Shown here: positions 13,326-16,067 of the stretch, piece after piece
How positions within the stretch are numbered: position 1 is the first letter of the stretch
Layout of the letters: every line of letters starts with the position of its first letter
From: a virus
Direction: 5' to 3' (one strand)
Length of the DNA: 31,594 nucleotides
Virus genome (UHGV): UHGV-0304743
Program-made: the position numbers and the translations under genes
The notes under the pieces: model-generated
What the model was told of the DNA's origin: nothing
Databases searched by the model: none
Seen by the model: the letters and a program-made list of their open reading frames with translations, nothing else

Positions 13326-13355
13326 TTGACAGACTCTACAAAGTTGCTCTAAAGT
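13326..13355 (+). promoter_or_regulatory. sigma70-like promoter (TTGACA-18-TAAAGT) embedded in an 8-bp inverted repeat GACAGACT/AGTCTGTC
   Basis: Consensus -35 hexamer; palindrome 13328-13335 and 13353-13360 overlaps it; 40 nt upstream of the 13395 ORF. Confidence 0.45.
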
Positions 13356-13394
13356 CTGTCACATCAAACAACAAATGAGAGAAGAGAGTAAAAT

Positions 13395-14810
13395 ATGAGC
13401 GAATTATTTAAACATGCGCACCTTCATGCAGGTCGAACTGAAAATGGTGCTGTAAACCATACTTCATCAATGTCTGCTCTTGTAGACTTTTACAAAGCTG
13501 CTGGTTCTAGCCGTAGCAATGTAGAAATCTTACCAGACCTGTTCTACAAAGCTTTGCGTGAGGATGTTGATGTTGCAGTTCGTATTTTACTGCATATGCG
13601 AGATGTACGAGAAGGTATGGGTGAGCGTAAAGCTTTCCGAACTGTTTTACTTCAAGCGATTGAAGATAAAGTTTTAGAACCTACGCAGGTTCTTCGCATT
13701 ATGGATAAGATTGCAGAGCTTGGTCGCTTTGATGACTTCAAAATCTTTGTAGGTACTCGTTTCGAGACAGATGCCTTCAAACATTTAGAAGCAGCTTTAC
13801 TAGACCCTGCAACAGCAGGTTTAGCAGCTAAGTGGTTACCACGAGTAAAACCACGCCACAAACAGTTTGTAAAACGTTTCTGTAAGTTTGCAAACTTAAG
13901 CGAGAAAGAGTACCGCACACTGTTATCTGCACTGTCTGATACGGTTGAGCAAAAAATCTCTGCTAATGAGTTTGGTAAGATTGACTACAGCAAGATTCCT
14001 TCACTCGCTGCTGCACGTTACCAAAAACTGTTTAACCGTAAAGATGGAGAACGCTACAAAGCTTACATCGAGTCCTTATCAAAGGGTGAGACTAAGATTA
14101 ATGCTGGTGCTGTTTACCCATACGATGTGATTAAATCTGTTAAGTATGGTAATGCAGATGTTGCTAATGAGCAGTGGAAAGCACTACCAAACTGGATGGC
14201 AGAAGGTGAAAACATCTTGTGTATGACTGATGTTTCAAGCTCAATGTCTTGGGTGAATTTTGGTTCAATCACTGCACTTGATATTGGTGTATCACTTGCC
14301 TTGTATGTAGCAGAACGCAATACAGGTTGCTTTAAGGATGAGTTGATGGTTTATTCAACAAACCCTCACTTCATCGAACTGAGTGGTGATTTACGAAACC
14401 GTCATCGTCAGGTGATGCGACACGTTGAATATGGCTCAACTAACTTACAAGCAGCTTTTGACGGCATTCTTGAGACAGGTAAAAGAAATAACTTGACTCA
14501 GAAAGATATGCCAAGTAAGCTTATCATCTTCTCCGATATGGAGTTCAATCAGGTTGATGGAGCTAACGGTCGTACAAACTTTGAAGCAATTCAGAGTAAG
14601 TACAAAAAAGCTGGATATGAGATGCCACAACTGGTATTCTGGTACTTAGCAAACCGTAATGGCACTTGCGAAGTATCTGTTAAGGATAACGGTGTAGCAA
14701 TGGTATCAGGGTTCTCTCCAGCCACTTTAAAAGCTCTGCTTGGTGGTGAGAAGTTTGAACCAATCAGTGTAATGCTCAAAGCAGTAATGATTGACCGTTA
14801 TATCTGGTAA
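13395..14810 (+). CDS. Ro60/Rsr-like protein: N-terminal helical domain (DUF2828/TROVE-like by recollection) plus C-terminal vWA domain with MIDAS motif
   Basis: MIDAS D-x-S-x-S at aa 279-283 (DVSSS), later vWA-like strand IIFSDMEF; N-terminal motifs TENGA and MRDVREGMGERKAFR; good RBS GAGAAGAGAG. Confidence 0.55.
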   Translation: MSELFKHAHLHAGRTENGAVNHTSSMSALVDFYKAAGSSRSNVEILPDLFYKALREDVDVAVRILLHMRDVREGMGERKAFRTVLLQAIEDKVLEPTQVLRIMDKIAELGRFDDFKIFVGTRFETDAFKHLEAALLDPATAGLAAKWLPRVKPRHKQFVKRFCKFANLSEKEYRTLLSALSDTVEQKISANEFGKIDYSKIPSLAAARYQKLFNRKDGERYKAYIESLSKGETKINAGAVYPYDVIKSVKYGNADVANEQWKALPNWMAEGENILCMTDVSSSMSWVNFGSITALDIGVSLALYVAERNTGCFKDELMVYSTNPHFIELSGDLRNRHRQVMRHVEYGSTNLQAAFDGILETGKRNNLTQKDMPSKLIIFSDMEFNQVDGANGRTNFEAIQSKYKKAGYEMPQLVFWYLANRNGTCEVSVKDNGVAMVSGFSPATLKALLGGEKFEPISVMLKAVMIDRYIW

Positions 14811-14828
14811 AAAGTTTTAAAAAGGGTA

Positions 14829-14857
14829 TTGACAATGTGTTTAATACCCTTTAATAT
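14829..14857 (+). promoter_or_regulatory. sigma70-like promoter TTGACA-17-TAATAT, overlapped by inverted repeat GGGTATT/AATACCC
   Basis: Near-consensus -35 and -10 hexamers with 17-nt spacer, just upstream of the tRNA array. Confidence 0.6.
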
Positions 14858-14919
14858 GTTCTACATAGAAACGAAATGAGAGCTTTTCTAAGATACTGAA
14901 AAATATTTTAAAAAAGTTC

Positions 14920-14949
14920 TTGACAACCACTAAAAAATAATGTTAAAGT
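14920..14949 (+). promoter_or_regulatory. sigma70-like promoter TTGACA-18-TAAAGT, flanked by inverted repeat ACCACT/AGTGGT
   Basis: Same architecture as the 13326 promoter; 27 nt upstream of the first tRNA. Confidence 0.5.
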
Positions 14950-14975
14950 GGTTACATAGAGTTTGAAAAGTTTAT

Positions 14976-15052
14976 CTCTGTTTAGCTCAGCTTGGTAGAG
15001 CGTTCCGTTTGGGGCGGTAAGGTCGGAGGTTCAAGTCCTCCAACAGAGACCA
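14976..15052 (+). tRNA. tRNA-Pro (anticodon TGG)
   Basis: Cloverleaf by eye: acceptor CTCTGTT/AACAGAG, D-arm GCTCAGCTTGGTAGAGC, anticodon loop TTTGGGG, T-arm GGAGGTTCAAGTCCTCC, CCA encoded. Confidence 0.75.
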
Positions 15053-15059
15053 AATTAAT

Positions 15060-15137
15060 GTTCCAGTAGACAAAATGGTAAAGTCACCACTCTTTCAAAG
15101 TGGATATCTGAGGGTTCAAATCCCTTCTGGAACGCCA
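15060..15137 (+). tRNA. tRNA-Glu (anticodon TTC)
   Basis: Acceptor GTTCCAG/CTGGAAC, anticodon stem CCACT/AGTGG with loop CTTTCAA, T-loop TTCAAAT, CCA encoded. Confidence 0.7.
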
Positions 15138-15144
15138 GTTTTGA

Positions 15145-15217
15145 CAGAAGACCAATTACAGCAAACTTAATCTTATTCATCTGAAGGTAAATCGGACAAA
15201 GAAGAGATTTGGTCTGG
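15145..15217 (+). ncRNA. Spacer element of the CAGAAGACC-N4-ACAGCAA ... GGTCTGG family (unit A)
   Basis: Conserved 5' motif at 15145-15164 and 3' GGTCTGG at 15211-15217; the termini can pair (AGACC/GGTCT). Confidence 0.35.
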
Positions 15218-15228
15218 TCATTAAGAAT

Positions 15229-15305
15229 TGCGGGTATAGAGAAAGGGCGTCTCACATGTCTCATTAGCATGGTATCGGCAGGTTCGACTCCTGCACCCGC
15301 CTCCA
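15229..15305 (+). tRNA. tRNA-Met or Ile2 (anticodon CAT), slightly atypical
   Basis: T-arm GCAGGTTCGACTCCTGC, anticodon stem CATGT/GCATG with loop CTCATTA, CCA encoded; acceptor pairs 6 bp with a 1:72 T.C mismatch and one extra nt before the D-stem. Confidence 0.55.
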
Positions 15306-15311
15306 ATTTTG

Positions 15312-15372
15312 CAGAAGACCGTTTACAGCAACAAAATACTTTTTGCGGATAAAAGAAAAAAACACGGTCTGG
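15312..15372 (+). ncRNA. Spacer element of the CAGAAGACC ... GGTCTGG family (unit B)
   Basis: CAGAAGACCGTTTACAGCAA at 15312-15331 and GGTCTGG at 15366-15372. Confidence 0.35.
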
Positions 15373-15383
15373 CAATGTATTAA

Positions 15384-15460
15384 GGTTAGGAAGCACATAA
15401 GGTATGTGCGGTCGCCTGTTAAGCGAATGGCACAGGGTTCGAATCCCTGACTAACCGCCA
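15384..15460 (+). tRNA. tRNA-Asn (anticodon GTT)
   Basis: Acceptor GGTTAGG/ACTAACC, anticodon loop CTGTTAA, T-arm CAGGGTTCGAATCCCTG, CCA encoded. Confidence 0.7.
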
Positions 15461-15468
15461 AATTAAAT

Positions 15469-15556
15469 GTGTCGTTATCCCGTAGATGGTAGCGGTGGGG
15501 ACTGTAAATCCCTTGTCATTGAGACTCGGTAGGTTCGACTCCTACACGGCACACCA
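15469..15556 (+). tRNA. tRNA-Tyr (anticodon GTA), long variable arm
   Basis: 88 nt; acceptor GTGTCGT/ACGGCAC, anticodon stem GGGGA/TCCCT with loop CTGTAAA, T-arm GTAGGTTCGACTCCTAC, CCA encoded. Confidence 0.7.
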
Positions 15557-15561
15557 ATAAA

Positions 15562-15638
15562 GGCTATGTAGTTTAACTGGAGAAAATACTCCCCTGTCAC
15601 GGGAGATGATGTGAGTTCAAGTCTCATCGTAGCCGCCA
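15562..15638 (+). tRNA. tRNA-Asp (anticodon GTC)
   Basis: Acceptor GGCTATG/CGTAGCC, anticodon stem CTCCC/GGGAG with loop CTGTCAC, T-loop TTCAAGT, CCA encoded. Confidence 0.75.
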
Positions 15639-15699
15639 ATTTTGAGAGGGCTATTTAGCCCCTCCCTTAAAGAGTTCTTACGAGTATTCTTTAAAGGAG

Positions 15700-15773
15700 C
15701 AGAAGACCAAATACAGCAAGTTATTTAAAATTTCAAGCCAATTTAATTTTGAAAAATTTAAAACTTGGTCTGG
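15700..15773 (+). ncRNA. Spacer element of the CAGAAGACC ... GGTCTGG family (unit C)
   Basis: CAGAAGACCAAATACAGCAA at 15700-15719 and GGTCTGG at 15767-15773. Confidence 0.35.
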
Positions 15774-15786
15774 CTCAACAAATTTA

Positions 15787-15918
15787 CAGAAGACCGTTTA
15801 CAGCAAAACTTAAACAATCTATTTCTCCGGTAAAGAAAAGGCGAAGGTTCGATTCCTTCACTCGGCAGATGTCGAGTTGGTGTAATGGTAGCACTTAAGA
15901 TGATAAACAACGGTCTGG
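15787..15918 (+). ncRNA. Candidate Y-RNA-like (YrlA-like) ncRNA: terminal stem CAGAAGACC/GGTCTGG enclosing a permuted tRNA-like domain (T-arm, then acceptor-like hairpin, then D-arm-like)
   Basis: T-arm GAAGGTTCGATTCCTTC (15843-15859); ACTCGGC-agat-GTCGAGT hairpin (15860-15877) where a tRNA would have separated acceptor strands; then TG plus GTGTAATGGTAGCAC D-arm-like (15880-15894); no anticodon arm. Confidence 0.45.
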
Positions 15919-16063
15919 TAATTATCTTTGTAGATAAGTTATTAAGCTTACCTGTGAGTATGCGACCACAAAGGGTGAAAGGGTAAATTCTAGATTTAAA
16001 CCCAAAAAGGCACATCGCTACAGACCTTAAGCAAGTCTGGGTAGCTTATCTACAAAGATAATT
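15916..16063 (+). repeat. 19-bp perfect inverted repeat (AATTATCTTTGTAGATAAG at 15916-15934 and its reverse complement at 16045-16063) enclosing ~110 nt
   Basis: Exact reverse complementarity checked by hand; lies between the Y-RNA-like unit and tRNA-Lys. Confidence 0.6.
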
Positions 16064-16067
16064 TAAT

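Follow-up and report, generated by a model that had tools for sequence, protein, structure and literature searches.

The Ro60-Y RNA partnership, in which Ro60 carries Y RNA on its outside and the ends of misfolded RNAs in its central cavity, is a classic RNA surveillance system, recognized so far only where the protein is detectable as TROVE. In its closest described forms, Rsr with YrlA and the Ro60-Yrl1/Yrl2 system of Thermus phage phiLo, a protein with a ring-plus-vWA fold is encoded next to its noncoding RNA (ncRNA) genes on the same strand. The Rsr partners are modular RNAs made of a terminal stem and a tRNA-like domain with V, T, closed acceptor stem (AS), and D arms, in the order V-T-AS-D (Chen et al., PMC4201824), and the phiLo system has been proposed to aid in escaping host defense. 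Nearest to the locus described here is gp130 (bas63_0130) of the BASEL phage Bas63 (Escherichia phage JohannRWettstein), which structurally resembles Ro60 and whose deletion makes Bas63 sensitive to the Ppl defense system (PhageMaP preprint, 2024, PMC11482910). The same authors guessed that some of the neighboring "tRNA genes" might be Y RNAs, but an RNA partner was not identified there. Here, we describe a gp130 ortholog and four structured RNA elements (units A to D) in the UHGV virus genome UHGV-0304743, analyzed as a single stretch of 31,594 nucleotides (the window). We consider it probable that they form a phage Ro60-type ribonucleoprotein (RNP) module, consisting of a Ro60-like protein and four cognate small RNAs. 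The Ro60-like fold, the anti-Ppl role, and the idea of nearby Y RNAs are already published for gp130; hence, the protein part of the module is known and the RNA part is new.

The region that holds the module is 97 to 98% identical to many Felixounavirus genomes, i.e., FelixO1-like myoviruses of E. coli and Salmonella. Within it, the Ro60-like protein gene occupies positions 13395 to 14810 on the plus strand, and translation of this open reading frame (ORF) yields a 471-aa protein that is 97% identical to gp130. It consists of a helical N-terminal DUF2828 region (about aa 1 to 270) and a C-terminal vWA/DUF7788 domain (aa 275 to 455). As had been noticed in a preliminary description of this DNA, made from the sequence without database searches, the vWA domain contains the MIDAS (metal ion-dependent adhesion site) motif D-V-S-S-S (aa 279 to 283; positions 14229 to 14243, plus strand). 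In an alignment of 60 family sequences, D279, S281, S283, T349, and D381 were invariant, and the MIDAS feature DxSxS...T...D was present. A resemblance to DUF2828, proposed there from the motifs TENGA (aa 15 to 19) and MRDVREGMGERKAFR (aa 68 to 82), was borne out by Pfam: both DUF2828 (PF11443; E 3.9e-29, 102.2 bits versus a cutoff of 29) and DUF7788 (PF25043; E 1.1e-42, 146.2 bits versus a cutoff of 27.1) matched above their gathering scores. Moreover, the protein matched PHROG 850, "RNA-binding protein," from end to end (E 6e-184).

The AlphaFold2 model of the 471-aa protein had a predicted local distance difference test (pLDDT) score of 89.6 and a predicted template modeling (pTM) score of 0.88. 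When this model was compared with the PDB by Foldseek, the best 11 matches were all Ro60, Rsr, or TROVE structures, aligned over their full length (about 520 columns) with E values between 5e-8 and 1.5e-6; the next matches were isolated vWA domains (E ≥ 1.6e-3). A Ro60 architecture of the modeled protein, with a HEAT-repeat ring and a C-terminal vWA domain with an intact MIDAS, is therefore well supported. As judged from the model, the relationship to Ro60 is visible at the fold level only, via structure comparison and not via sequence. The Ro60/Rsr architecture claimed in the preliminary description thus stood as a fold, while a match to TROVE or Ro60 at the sequence level was lacking.

The gene family is large. 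A tblastn survey found it in 710 annotated phage records, among them FelixO1-like, KVP40-like, and Listeria P100-like phages, Staphylococcus and Enterococcus phages, and mycobacteriophages. The latter include the "Ro-like RNA-binding protein" of cluster L (Rumpelstiltskin gp54 and LeBron gp53), which belongs to the same family with 33 to 34% identity over the full length. The names used for the cluster L proteins and for PHROG 850 rest on remote similarity, and no described RNA partner was found for them. In the literature searched, DUF2828 appeared in eukaryotic contexts, mostly in plants.

Directly downstream of the gene lies a tRNA array, and the preliminary description had placed in it a permuted tRNA-like element (15787 to 15918) as well as three shorter spacer units that share its terminal motifs. 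Both observations were confirmed. The repeat CAGAAGACC-NNN-TACAGCAA (repeat family D12) occurs four times in the window, and every copy pairs with a downstream GGTCTGG. All four units thus defined are encoded on the plus strand, 330 to 1,100 nt downstream of the Ro60-like gene. Unit A (15142 to 15220) combines a lower stem UGAC/GUCA, an internal loop AGA/G, a stem AGACCAA/UUGGUCU, the motif UACAGCAA, and a 44-nt insert; unit B (15309 to 15375) combines a lower stem UUGC/GCAA, a stem AGACCGU/ACGGUCU, UACAGCAA, and a 32-nt insert. Both, like unit C, were delimited by the repeat, by folding, and by a strict pattern. In unit C (15697 to 15776; z score of −2.6), a lower stem GAGC/GCUC and a stem AGACCAA/UUGGUCU are followed by AUACAGCAA and a 45-nt A/U-rich hairpin insert. 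Unit D, the tRNA-like element, extended from 15784 to 15921 in our analysis (folding and T-arm scan) and has a lower stem UUAC/GUAA, a stem AGACCGUU/AACGGUCU, UACAGCAA, and a permuted tRNA-like insert. Read from 5′ to 3′, the fold common to all four is a 4-bp lower stem, an AGA/G loop, a 7- to 8-bp stem AGACCNN/NNGGUCU, a 1-nt spacer, UACAGCAA, and an insert of 32 to 103 nt, and all four share a 3′ CUG. The 4-bp lower stems differ in sequence from unit to unit with pairing always kept, i.e., they covary among the four units of the window. An alternative pairing, with GGUCUGG as the 5′ strand around the next tRNA in a Y RNA-like strand order, was rejected, since the flanks covary only in the register of their own unit.

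Bas63 resembles the window in that its gp130 gene lies 5′ of the same tRNA array, in which all four units are found again. Bas63 and the window have identical D units, and in unit B of Bas63 the lower stem carries a compensatory change. In contrast to the published guess, the candidates are unannotated spacers between the tRNAs and not annotated tRNAs. In the Bas63 record, the spacers holding the units are partly covered by small reverse-strand ORFs. The number of units varies among near-identical Felixounaviruses, with two in L002, three in L001 (L numbers denote individual loci), and four in L003 to L005, Bas63, and the window. This variation indicates that individual units were probably gained and lost rapidly within this group.

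To follow the shared terminal structure (the handle) across the family, we scanned 90 sources, comprising the window, 80 viral contigs with homologs of 39 to 99% identity, and 9 annotated phages picked from the tblastn survey. Explicit pattern scans with opposite-strand and shuffle controls were used in place of a covariance model of the handle, because such a model would penalize the inserts of 9 to 230 nt between the motif and the 3′ strand. Under the strict grammar, 62 elements were found on the gene strand and none on the opposite strand, with 0.4 expected from shuffles; under the relaxed grammar, the counts were 95 and 1, respectively, with 2.1 expected, and elements were present in 47 of the 90 sources. 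Of the sites with TACAGCAA, 119 lay on the gene strand and 19 on the opposite one, at about 16 expected per strand. A perfect in-register 7-bp stem followed by G accompanied 82 of the 119 gene-strand sites, compared to none of the 19 on the other strand. These 82 elements use 41 distinct stem sequences, in which a G-C pair is nearly invariant at the second position (the third in some Firmicute phages) and the other pairs covary. The 41 covarying stems indicate that the structure is under selection, and the counts support the view that these are real RNA elements that covary and whose genomic location is tied to the gene family even in very distant phages. Some sources scored as negative carry variants such as UUCAGCAA. 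In L014 (7468 to 7735), and likewise in the group of L009, L015, and L019 to L023, a second UACAGCAA with the noncanonical 5′ strand GGAUAG immediately follows a canonical short element; in L014, its pairing strand (CUAUCC) seems to lie about 260 nt further downstream, with a large insert in between.

The coupling also held where protein identity was only 27 to 37%. In phages of Mycobacterium, Listeria, Campylobacter, Enterococcus, Bacillus, and Staphylococcus, elements occupy unannotated gaps that touch the gene. Three tandem copies lie directly 3′ of it in Mycobacterium phage Rumpelstiltskin (next to gp54) and in a Staphylococcus phage, and two to four copies lie just 5′ of it in Listeria, Enterococcus, Campylobacter, and Bacillus phages. 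Looser matches, with an imperfect stem, a non-G 3′ end, or a variant motif, were seen in Yersinia, Vibrio, and Synechococcus phages. Within the Rumpelstiltskin genome, the initial 37 kb contained no element on either strand. In the reverse test, viral contigs were scanned at the DNA level with a 14-base motif pattern, and a same-strand gene was present within the sequence stretch examined for 8 of 16 canonical-stem matches. Two further canonical matches fell on the L024 contig, a known gene carrier, and several others lay at cut sequence ends. For stemless matches, the gene was present in 6 of 100.

These distributions bear on whether the units might merely serve the tRNA array as processing or spacer signals (e.g., as entry sites for nucleases) or be scars of recombination in it (e.g., leftovers from the shuffling of tRNA genes and from degenerate tRNAs), with no functional relation to the vWA protein. 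The units of the window do sit exactly between tRNA genes, unit D holds tRNA-derived arms, the unit count differs between closely related genomes as described above, and tRNA dimers can mimic YrlA, as Chen et al. warned (PMC4201824). However, elements were found in 12 loci without a tRNA gene within 6 kb (L009, L011, L014, L025, L045, L046, L054, L058, L063, L071, L073, and L075), where the handle adjoins the gene, and the link is therefore with the gene for the protein rather than with tRNA arrays. The handle also lies directly 3′ of the gene in the Staphylococcus and Mycobacterium phages, the two acceptor strands within unit D form a 7-bp helix capped by a tetraloop, which the junction of two different tRNAs would not yield, and the 41 covarying stems point to structural selection. 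We thus regard an origin of the units as mere array spacers as very unlikely.

The insert of unit D contains a V-like hairpin (15822 to 15838), a canonical T arm (15843 to 15859; GAAGG-TTCGATT-CCTTC), a 7-bp acceptor-like stem closed by an AGAU tetraloop (15860 to 15877), and a D arm (15880 to 15894). The V, T, closed acceptor, and D arms that characterize YrlA inside its terminal stem were recognized at 15822 to 15894 from the fold and from motifs; units A to C have no such tRNA-like domain. Unit D thus contains a predicted circularly permuted tRNA-like domain of YrlA architecture. The Y RNA-like tRNA mimicry that the preliminary description had seen beside the gene was accordingly found in unit D, with the YrlA arm order; units A to C do not mimic tRNAs. 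ARAGORN, run at lowered stringency on artificially repermuted unit D sequences, called a tRNA for only one of three synthetic anticodon loops. Rfam gave only a partial tRNA match on unit D (15810 to 15860, 22 bits). The suggested Infernal search with Rfam models of YrlA (RF02553) and Y_RNA (RF00019) returned no match on units A to D, even at E ≤ 10, with relaxed filters, and on a 171-nt slice; the only YrlA line in the window (16245 to 16348, 16 bits) overlapped two tandem tRNAs.

Besides unit D, L027 and Enterococcus phage EFDG1 (two copies) showed the order T arm, closed acceptor, D arm. The two EFDG1 copies scored 43.2 bits (E 3e-8) and 34.2 bits (E 1e-5) against Rfam YrlA without reaching the gathering score of 69; it was the T, acceptor, and D arms that contributed the score, and the terminal helix of YrlA aligned poorly. 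When four tRNA-like elements were aligned with MAFFT and analyzed with RNAalifold, the outer stem and the T arm alone were recovered, because the acceptor and D arms had been misaligned. Across all elements, insert length ranged from 9 to about 230 nt. In upstream elements on unrelated contigs (L007, L008, L012, L018, and L029), a conserved module, GAACCUUUCUGGAGGGGAAAGCAAAAACUCGCCAAAA, was present inside the handle and forms a second recurrent cargo type beside the tRNA-like one. The picture that emerges is one of a single handle with exchangeable cargo, of which the YrlA-type tRNA mimic is one kind.

Compared to Rsr-YrlA and phiLo, the locus shares the ring-plus-vWA fold, the same-strand adjacency of gene and RNAs, and, in unit D, the modular build, but it differs in several respects. 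Sequence searches do not identify the protein as TROVE; the handle is a 7-bp stem with UACAGCAA, in contrast to the bulged helix or GNCGAA/CGAA motif of the described systems; most copies lack a tRNA-like domain; and the RNAs of the window sit inside a tRNA array. The Ro-binding module of YrlA and Y RNAs (GNCGAAN0-1G near the 5′ end, or a bulged GGUCCGA helix) was not found in the units, whose 5′ module is AG-N5-N-UACAGCAA. A GGCGAAG string at 15840 to 15846 was not counted as a Ro-binding motif, as it overlaps the T stem and not a terminal helix. By the sequence and covariance definitions of TROVE and YrlA, the module is outside both; it is a variant of the Ro60-Y RNA kind with a different handle.

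In the proposed mechanism, units A to D would be the cognate small RNAs of the protein, embedded in the first part of the tRNA array. The constant handle, i.e., a 7-bp helix with nearly fixed outer pairs (A-U or U-A, then G-C), a 1-nt spacer, single-stranded UACAGCAA, and a 3′ G, is proposed as the recognition element for the protein. The units would probably be freed from the tRNA precursor by the same RNase P and 3′-end processing as the flanking tRNAs; since promoter-like sites at 14829 and 14920 precede the array and the units fill tRNA gaps, release by tRNA processing is plausible. By analogy with Ro60-Y RNA, the variable cargo insert (in unit D, the permuted YrlA-type tRNA mimic) would link the RNP to factors that bind tRNA or process RNA, or would serve as their decoy, and the RNP would assist phage RNA management or evasion of host defense during infection. 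We infer the direct binding of the RNAs by the protein, their release through tRNA processing, and the function of the cargo.

Several observations weigh against this reading. Pfam TROVE (PF05731) gave nothing at E ≤ 1 for the 471-aa protein, and searches of PDB sequences, with phmmer from the single sequence and with a profile of the 60-sequence family, returned no Ro60 match. No Rfam family matched units A to D at its gathering score, 43 of the 90 sources lack an element under the relaxed definition, and no expression data on units A to D came to light. As the handle is neither the bulged Y RNA helix nor GNCGAA, the binding mode of Ro60 is not simply transferable. In several loci, a short-insert element abuts the Shine-Dalgarno sequence of the gene, which would also fit a purely cis-regulatory role. 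Lastly, gp130 alone, supplied on a plasmid or moved into T7, restored plaquing on the Ppl strain (PMC11482910), so the anti-Ppl phenotype may not need phage RNAs. The preliminary description had itself proposed that sequence-level searches of this kind could overturn it, and none of them gave a TROVE, PDB-profile Ro60, or YrlA/Y_RNA match; nonetheless, covariation of the RNA elements was found. Its reading of the locus as a possible phage Ro60-like RNP was supported in substance by the fold and by covarying RNAs coupled to the gene.

The upstream copies raise the question of whether the elements are cis-acting operators: the protein would bind the handle as part of its own mRNA or of the tRNA precursor and thereby autoregulate translation or control processing. 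In seven loci (L007, L012, L018, L058, L074, L075, and L080), a handle copy with a short insert ends 10 to 60 nt before the Ro60-like start codon, and in L012 the 3′ G of the upstream element belongs to the GGAGG Shine-Dalgarno sequence. These copies suggest possible translational autoregulation through the same protein-RNA contact, and an operator would likewise require the protein to bind the RNA handle. In the window, however, the 5′ untranslated region of the gene contains no handle element, and the four copies lie far downstream, past two promoter-like sites and two tRNAs. Many loci also carry two to four tandem copies with elaborate inserts of 100 to 230 nt, including tRNA-like domains, that would be superfluous for an operator. 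An exclusively operator-like function thus appears unlikely, although operator and stand-alone RNA roles do not exclude each other.

The rescue by gp130 alone bears on a further explanation, in which the protein acts without a dedicated RNA, e.g., as a vWA/MIDAS protein-protein inhibitor that directly blocks the Ppl nuclease/ATPase, and the RNAs are an independent ncRNA family sharing the same "RNA island." MIDAS vWA domains are classic protein-binding modules, the vWA domains of Midasin/Rea1 and Ku80 were among the structural matches of the 471-aa protein, and the LeBron homolog overexpressed alone has been reported as toxic to M. smegmatis. Yet gene and handle remain linked on one strand in phages whose hosts span at least five phyla, and in varied genome contexts, which is hard to understand without a functional link; moreover, the Ro60 fold is an RNA-binding ring, and the rescue experiments are compatible with the use of host RNA. 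We therefore judge action without a dedicated RNA to be rather improbable and continue with the RNP module as the preferred reading.

The only Rfam family that touched the units repeatedly was RF01414 (Dicty_Class_I_RNA), with 25.3 bits for unit B, 19.7 bits for A, and 12.8 bits for D. No unit reached its gathering score of 41.5; the best, B, had an E value of 0.084 in a 2.5-kb search, and none was significant alone. In 11 further distant loci, an Rfam scan at gathering scores returned neither RF01414 nor any other family covering the elements. The likeness lies in the construction of the RNAs. The D. discoideum RNA reads GUUGAC-CU-UACAGCAA...GUCAAC-UG, i.e., Class I RNAs have a terminal stem that opens with an invariant G and otherwise covaries freely, the octamer UACAGCAA beside the 5′ strand, a variable interior, and a 3′ end C-UG, and they are of similar size (42 to 65 nt, versus 56 to 69 nt for the stem-to-stem cores of units A to C). 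With one extra spacer nucleotide, the phage grammar fits 23 of 31 distinct D. discoideum RNAs. The most conserved Class I positions in dictyostelids are C6, C9, A10, and A11 (Kjellin et al. 2021, PMC7919456), and the same positions are also the least variable among the phage variants. Of the 11-nt Class I motif CCUUACAGCAA, 8 nt are present as UACAGCAA, which is invariant in the units of the window and dominant elsewhere; the literal CCUUACAGCAA was found in L011, L014, and related loci, but its CC is paired there.

Differences exist as well. Dictyostelium RNAs have a spacer of 2 nt, compared to 1 nt in the phages, and Class I RNAs have their own promoters (downstream sequence element [DUSE]/TGTG box) with transcripts starting at the G, whereas the units lie in a tRNA array with sigma-70-like promoters. 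Class I RNAs have been reported as unique to dictyostelids (PMC7919456) and are tied to multicellular development; their sole proven direct binder is the RRM protein Rnp1A. A motif search of partial proteome files for the identity of DDB_G0281243 returned only an unrelated vWA protein. Tentatively, and with considerable doubt, RNAs with a stem and UACAGCAA might be partners of the whole DUF2828/DUF7788 Ro60-like branch in eukaryotes and phages, with Class I RNAs as members or equivalents that work with a dictyostelid DUF2828-type protein. If this were true, Ro60-like RNPs with interchangeable RNA cargo would be a second ancient family parallel to Ro60-Y RNA. The phage units offer the first lead outside Dictyostelia towards the mechanism of Class I RNAs.

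For the phages themselves, the RNP module would assign a specific and easily searchable candidate RNA partner to a Ro60-like family that is much larger than the one detectable as TROVE and divergent from it in sequence. It would turn the published observation on gp130 and Ppl into a testable RNP hypothesis and would explain unannotated or misannotated spacers in phage tRNA arrays. The family includes Staphylococcus and Enterococcus phages, kinds that are used in therapy.

The remaining features of the region concern its transcription and the tRNA array, and those from 13326 to 15638 are on the plus strand. A sigma-70-like promoter precedes the Ro60-like gene at 13326 to 13355 (TTGACA-18-TAAAGT, 10 of 12 consensus positions, by consensus match alone). 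In the gap between gene and array, consensus scans revealed a hairpin (14821 to 14852) and two promoter-like sites (14829 to 14857 and 14920 to 14949); this stretch, 14821 to 14949, is likely the start of a tRNA/ncRNA transcript, as inferred from these elements. The array begins at 14976 and comprises 25 tRNAs according to ARAGORN. By ARAGORN and Rfam, tRNA-Pro(UGG) and tRNA-Glu(UUC) (14976 to 15137) lie immediately 5′ of unit A, tRNA-Met(CAU) (15229 to 15305) lies between units A and B, and tRNA-Asn, tRNA-Tyr, and tRNA-Asp (15384 to 15638) lie between units B and C. Unit A thus follows tRNA-Glu, unit B follows tRNA-Met, and units C and D follow tRNA-Asp.

Directly 3′ of unit D is a 145-nt element (15920 to 16064) with an almost perfect closing stem of about 24 bp (UAUCUUUGUAGAUAAG.../...CUUAUCUACAAAGAUA). 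Its minimum free energy was −48.3 kcal/mol (z score of −6.26), and no shuffled sequence folded equally well. It lacks the UACAGCAA handle and could be a further ncRNA or an RNase III-type processing site; in the corresponding area of Bas63, the small reverse-strand ORFs bas63_0137 and bas63_0138 are annotated, which are probably spurious. Further downstream, the 250 nt that separate tRNA-Ile from the following tRNA-like gene (16376 to 16623) contain the best promoter-like site of the region (TTGACA-17-TATAGT, 16391 to 16419) and matches to tmRNA and permuted tmRNA below threshold (31.7 and 16.3 bits), and this gap may hold another small RNA. It is followed by a weak Rfam tRNA at 16624 to 16702 (31.7 bits) that was missed by ARAGORN; Bas63 has an annotated tRNA-Arg(AGA) in this part of the array. 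Right after this tRNA, an HNH-endonuclease-like ORF starts with ATG at 16720 (weak Pfam HNH match, E 0.0045), and 16624 to 17067 looks like a homing-endonuclease insertion into the tRNA array.

Among the other loci, L026 has a group I intron that Rfam recognized above its gathering score (11696 to 11922; 71.5 bits) and that is located 4 kb downstream of the DUF2828 gene. In Listeria phage LMSP-25 (L083), a gene for an RtcB "tRNA-splicing ligase" (5808 to 7019) lies 1.3 kb downstream of the DUF2828 gene, and a ROOL-RNA-like region (1428 to 1979; 88.5 bits versus a gathering score of 99.1) lies 1 kb upstream of it, so that this locus looks like an RNA-centered gene island. The RtcB neighbor recalls the rsr-yrlBA-rtcBA operon of Salmonella. 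In the window, the gene directly upstream of the Ro60-like gene (12942 to 13313, same strand) encodes a basic 123-aa DUF5681 protein with the motif GNPSGRPKG (E 7e-14). Its counterpart in Bas63 (bas63_0129) is placed likewise, and in Yersinia phage P778 the place is taken by a small ORF of comparable length; the DUF5681 protein may be an additional component of the module.

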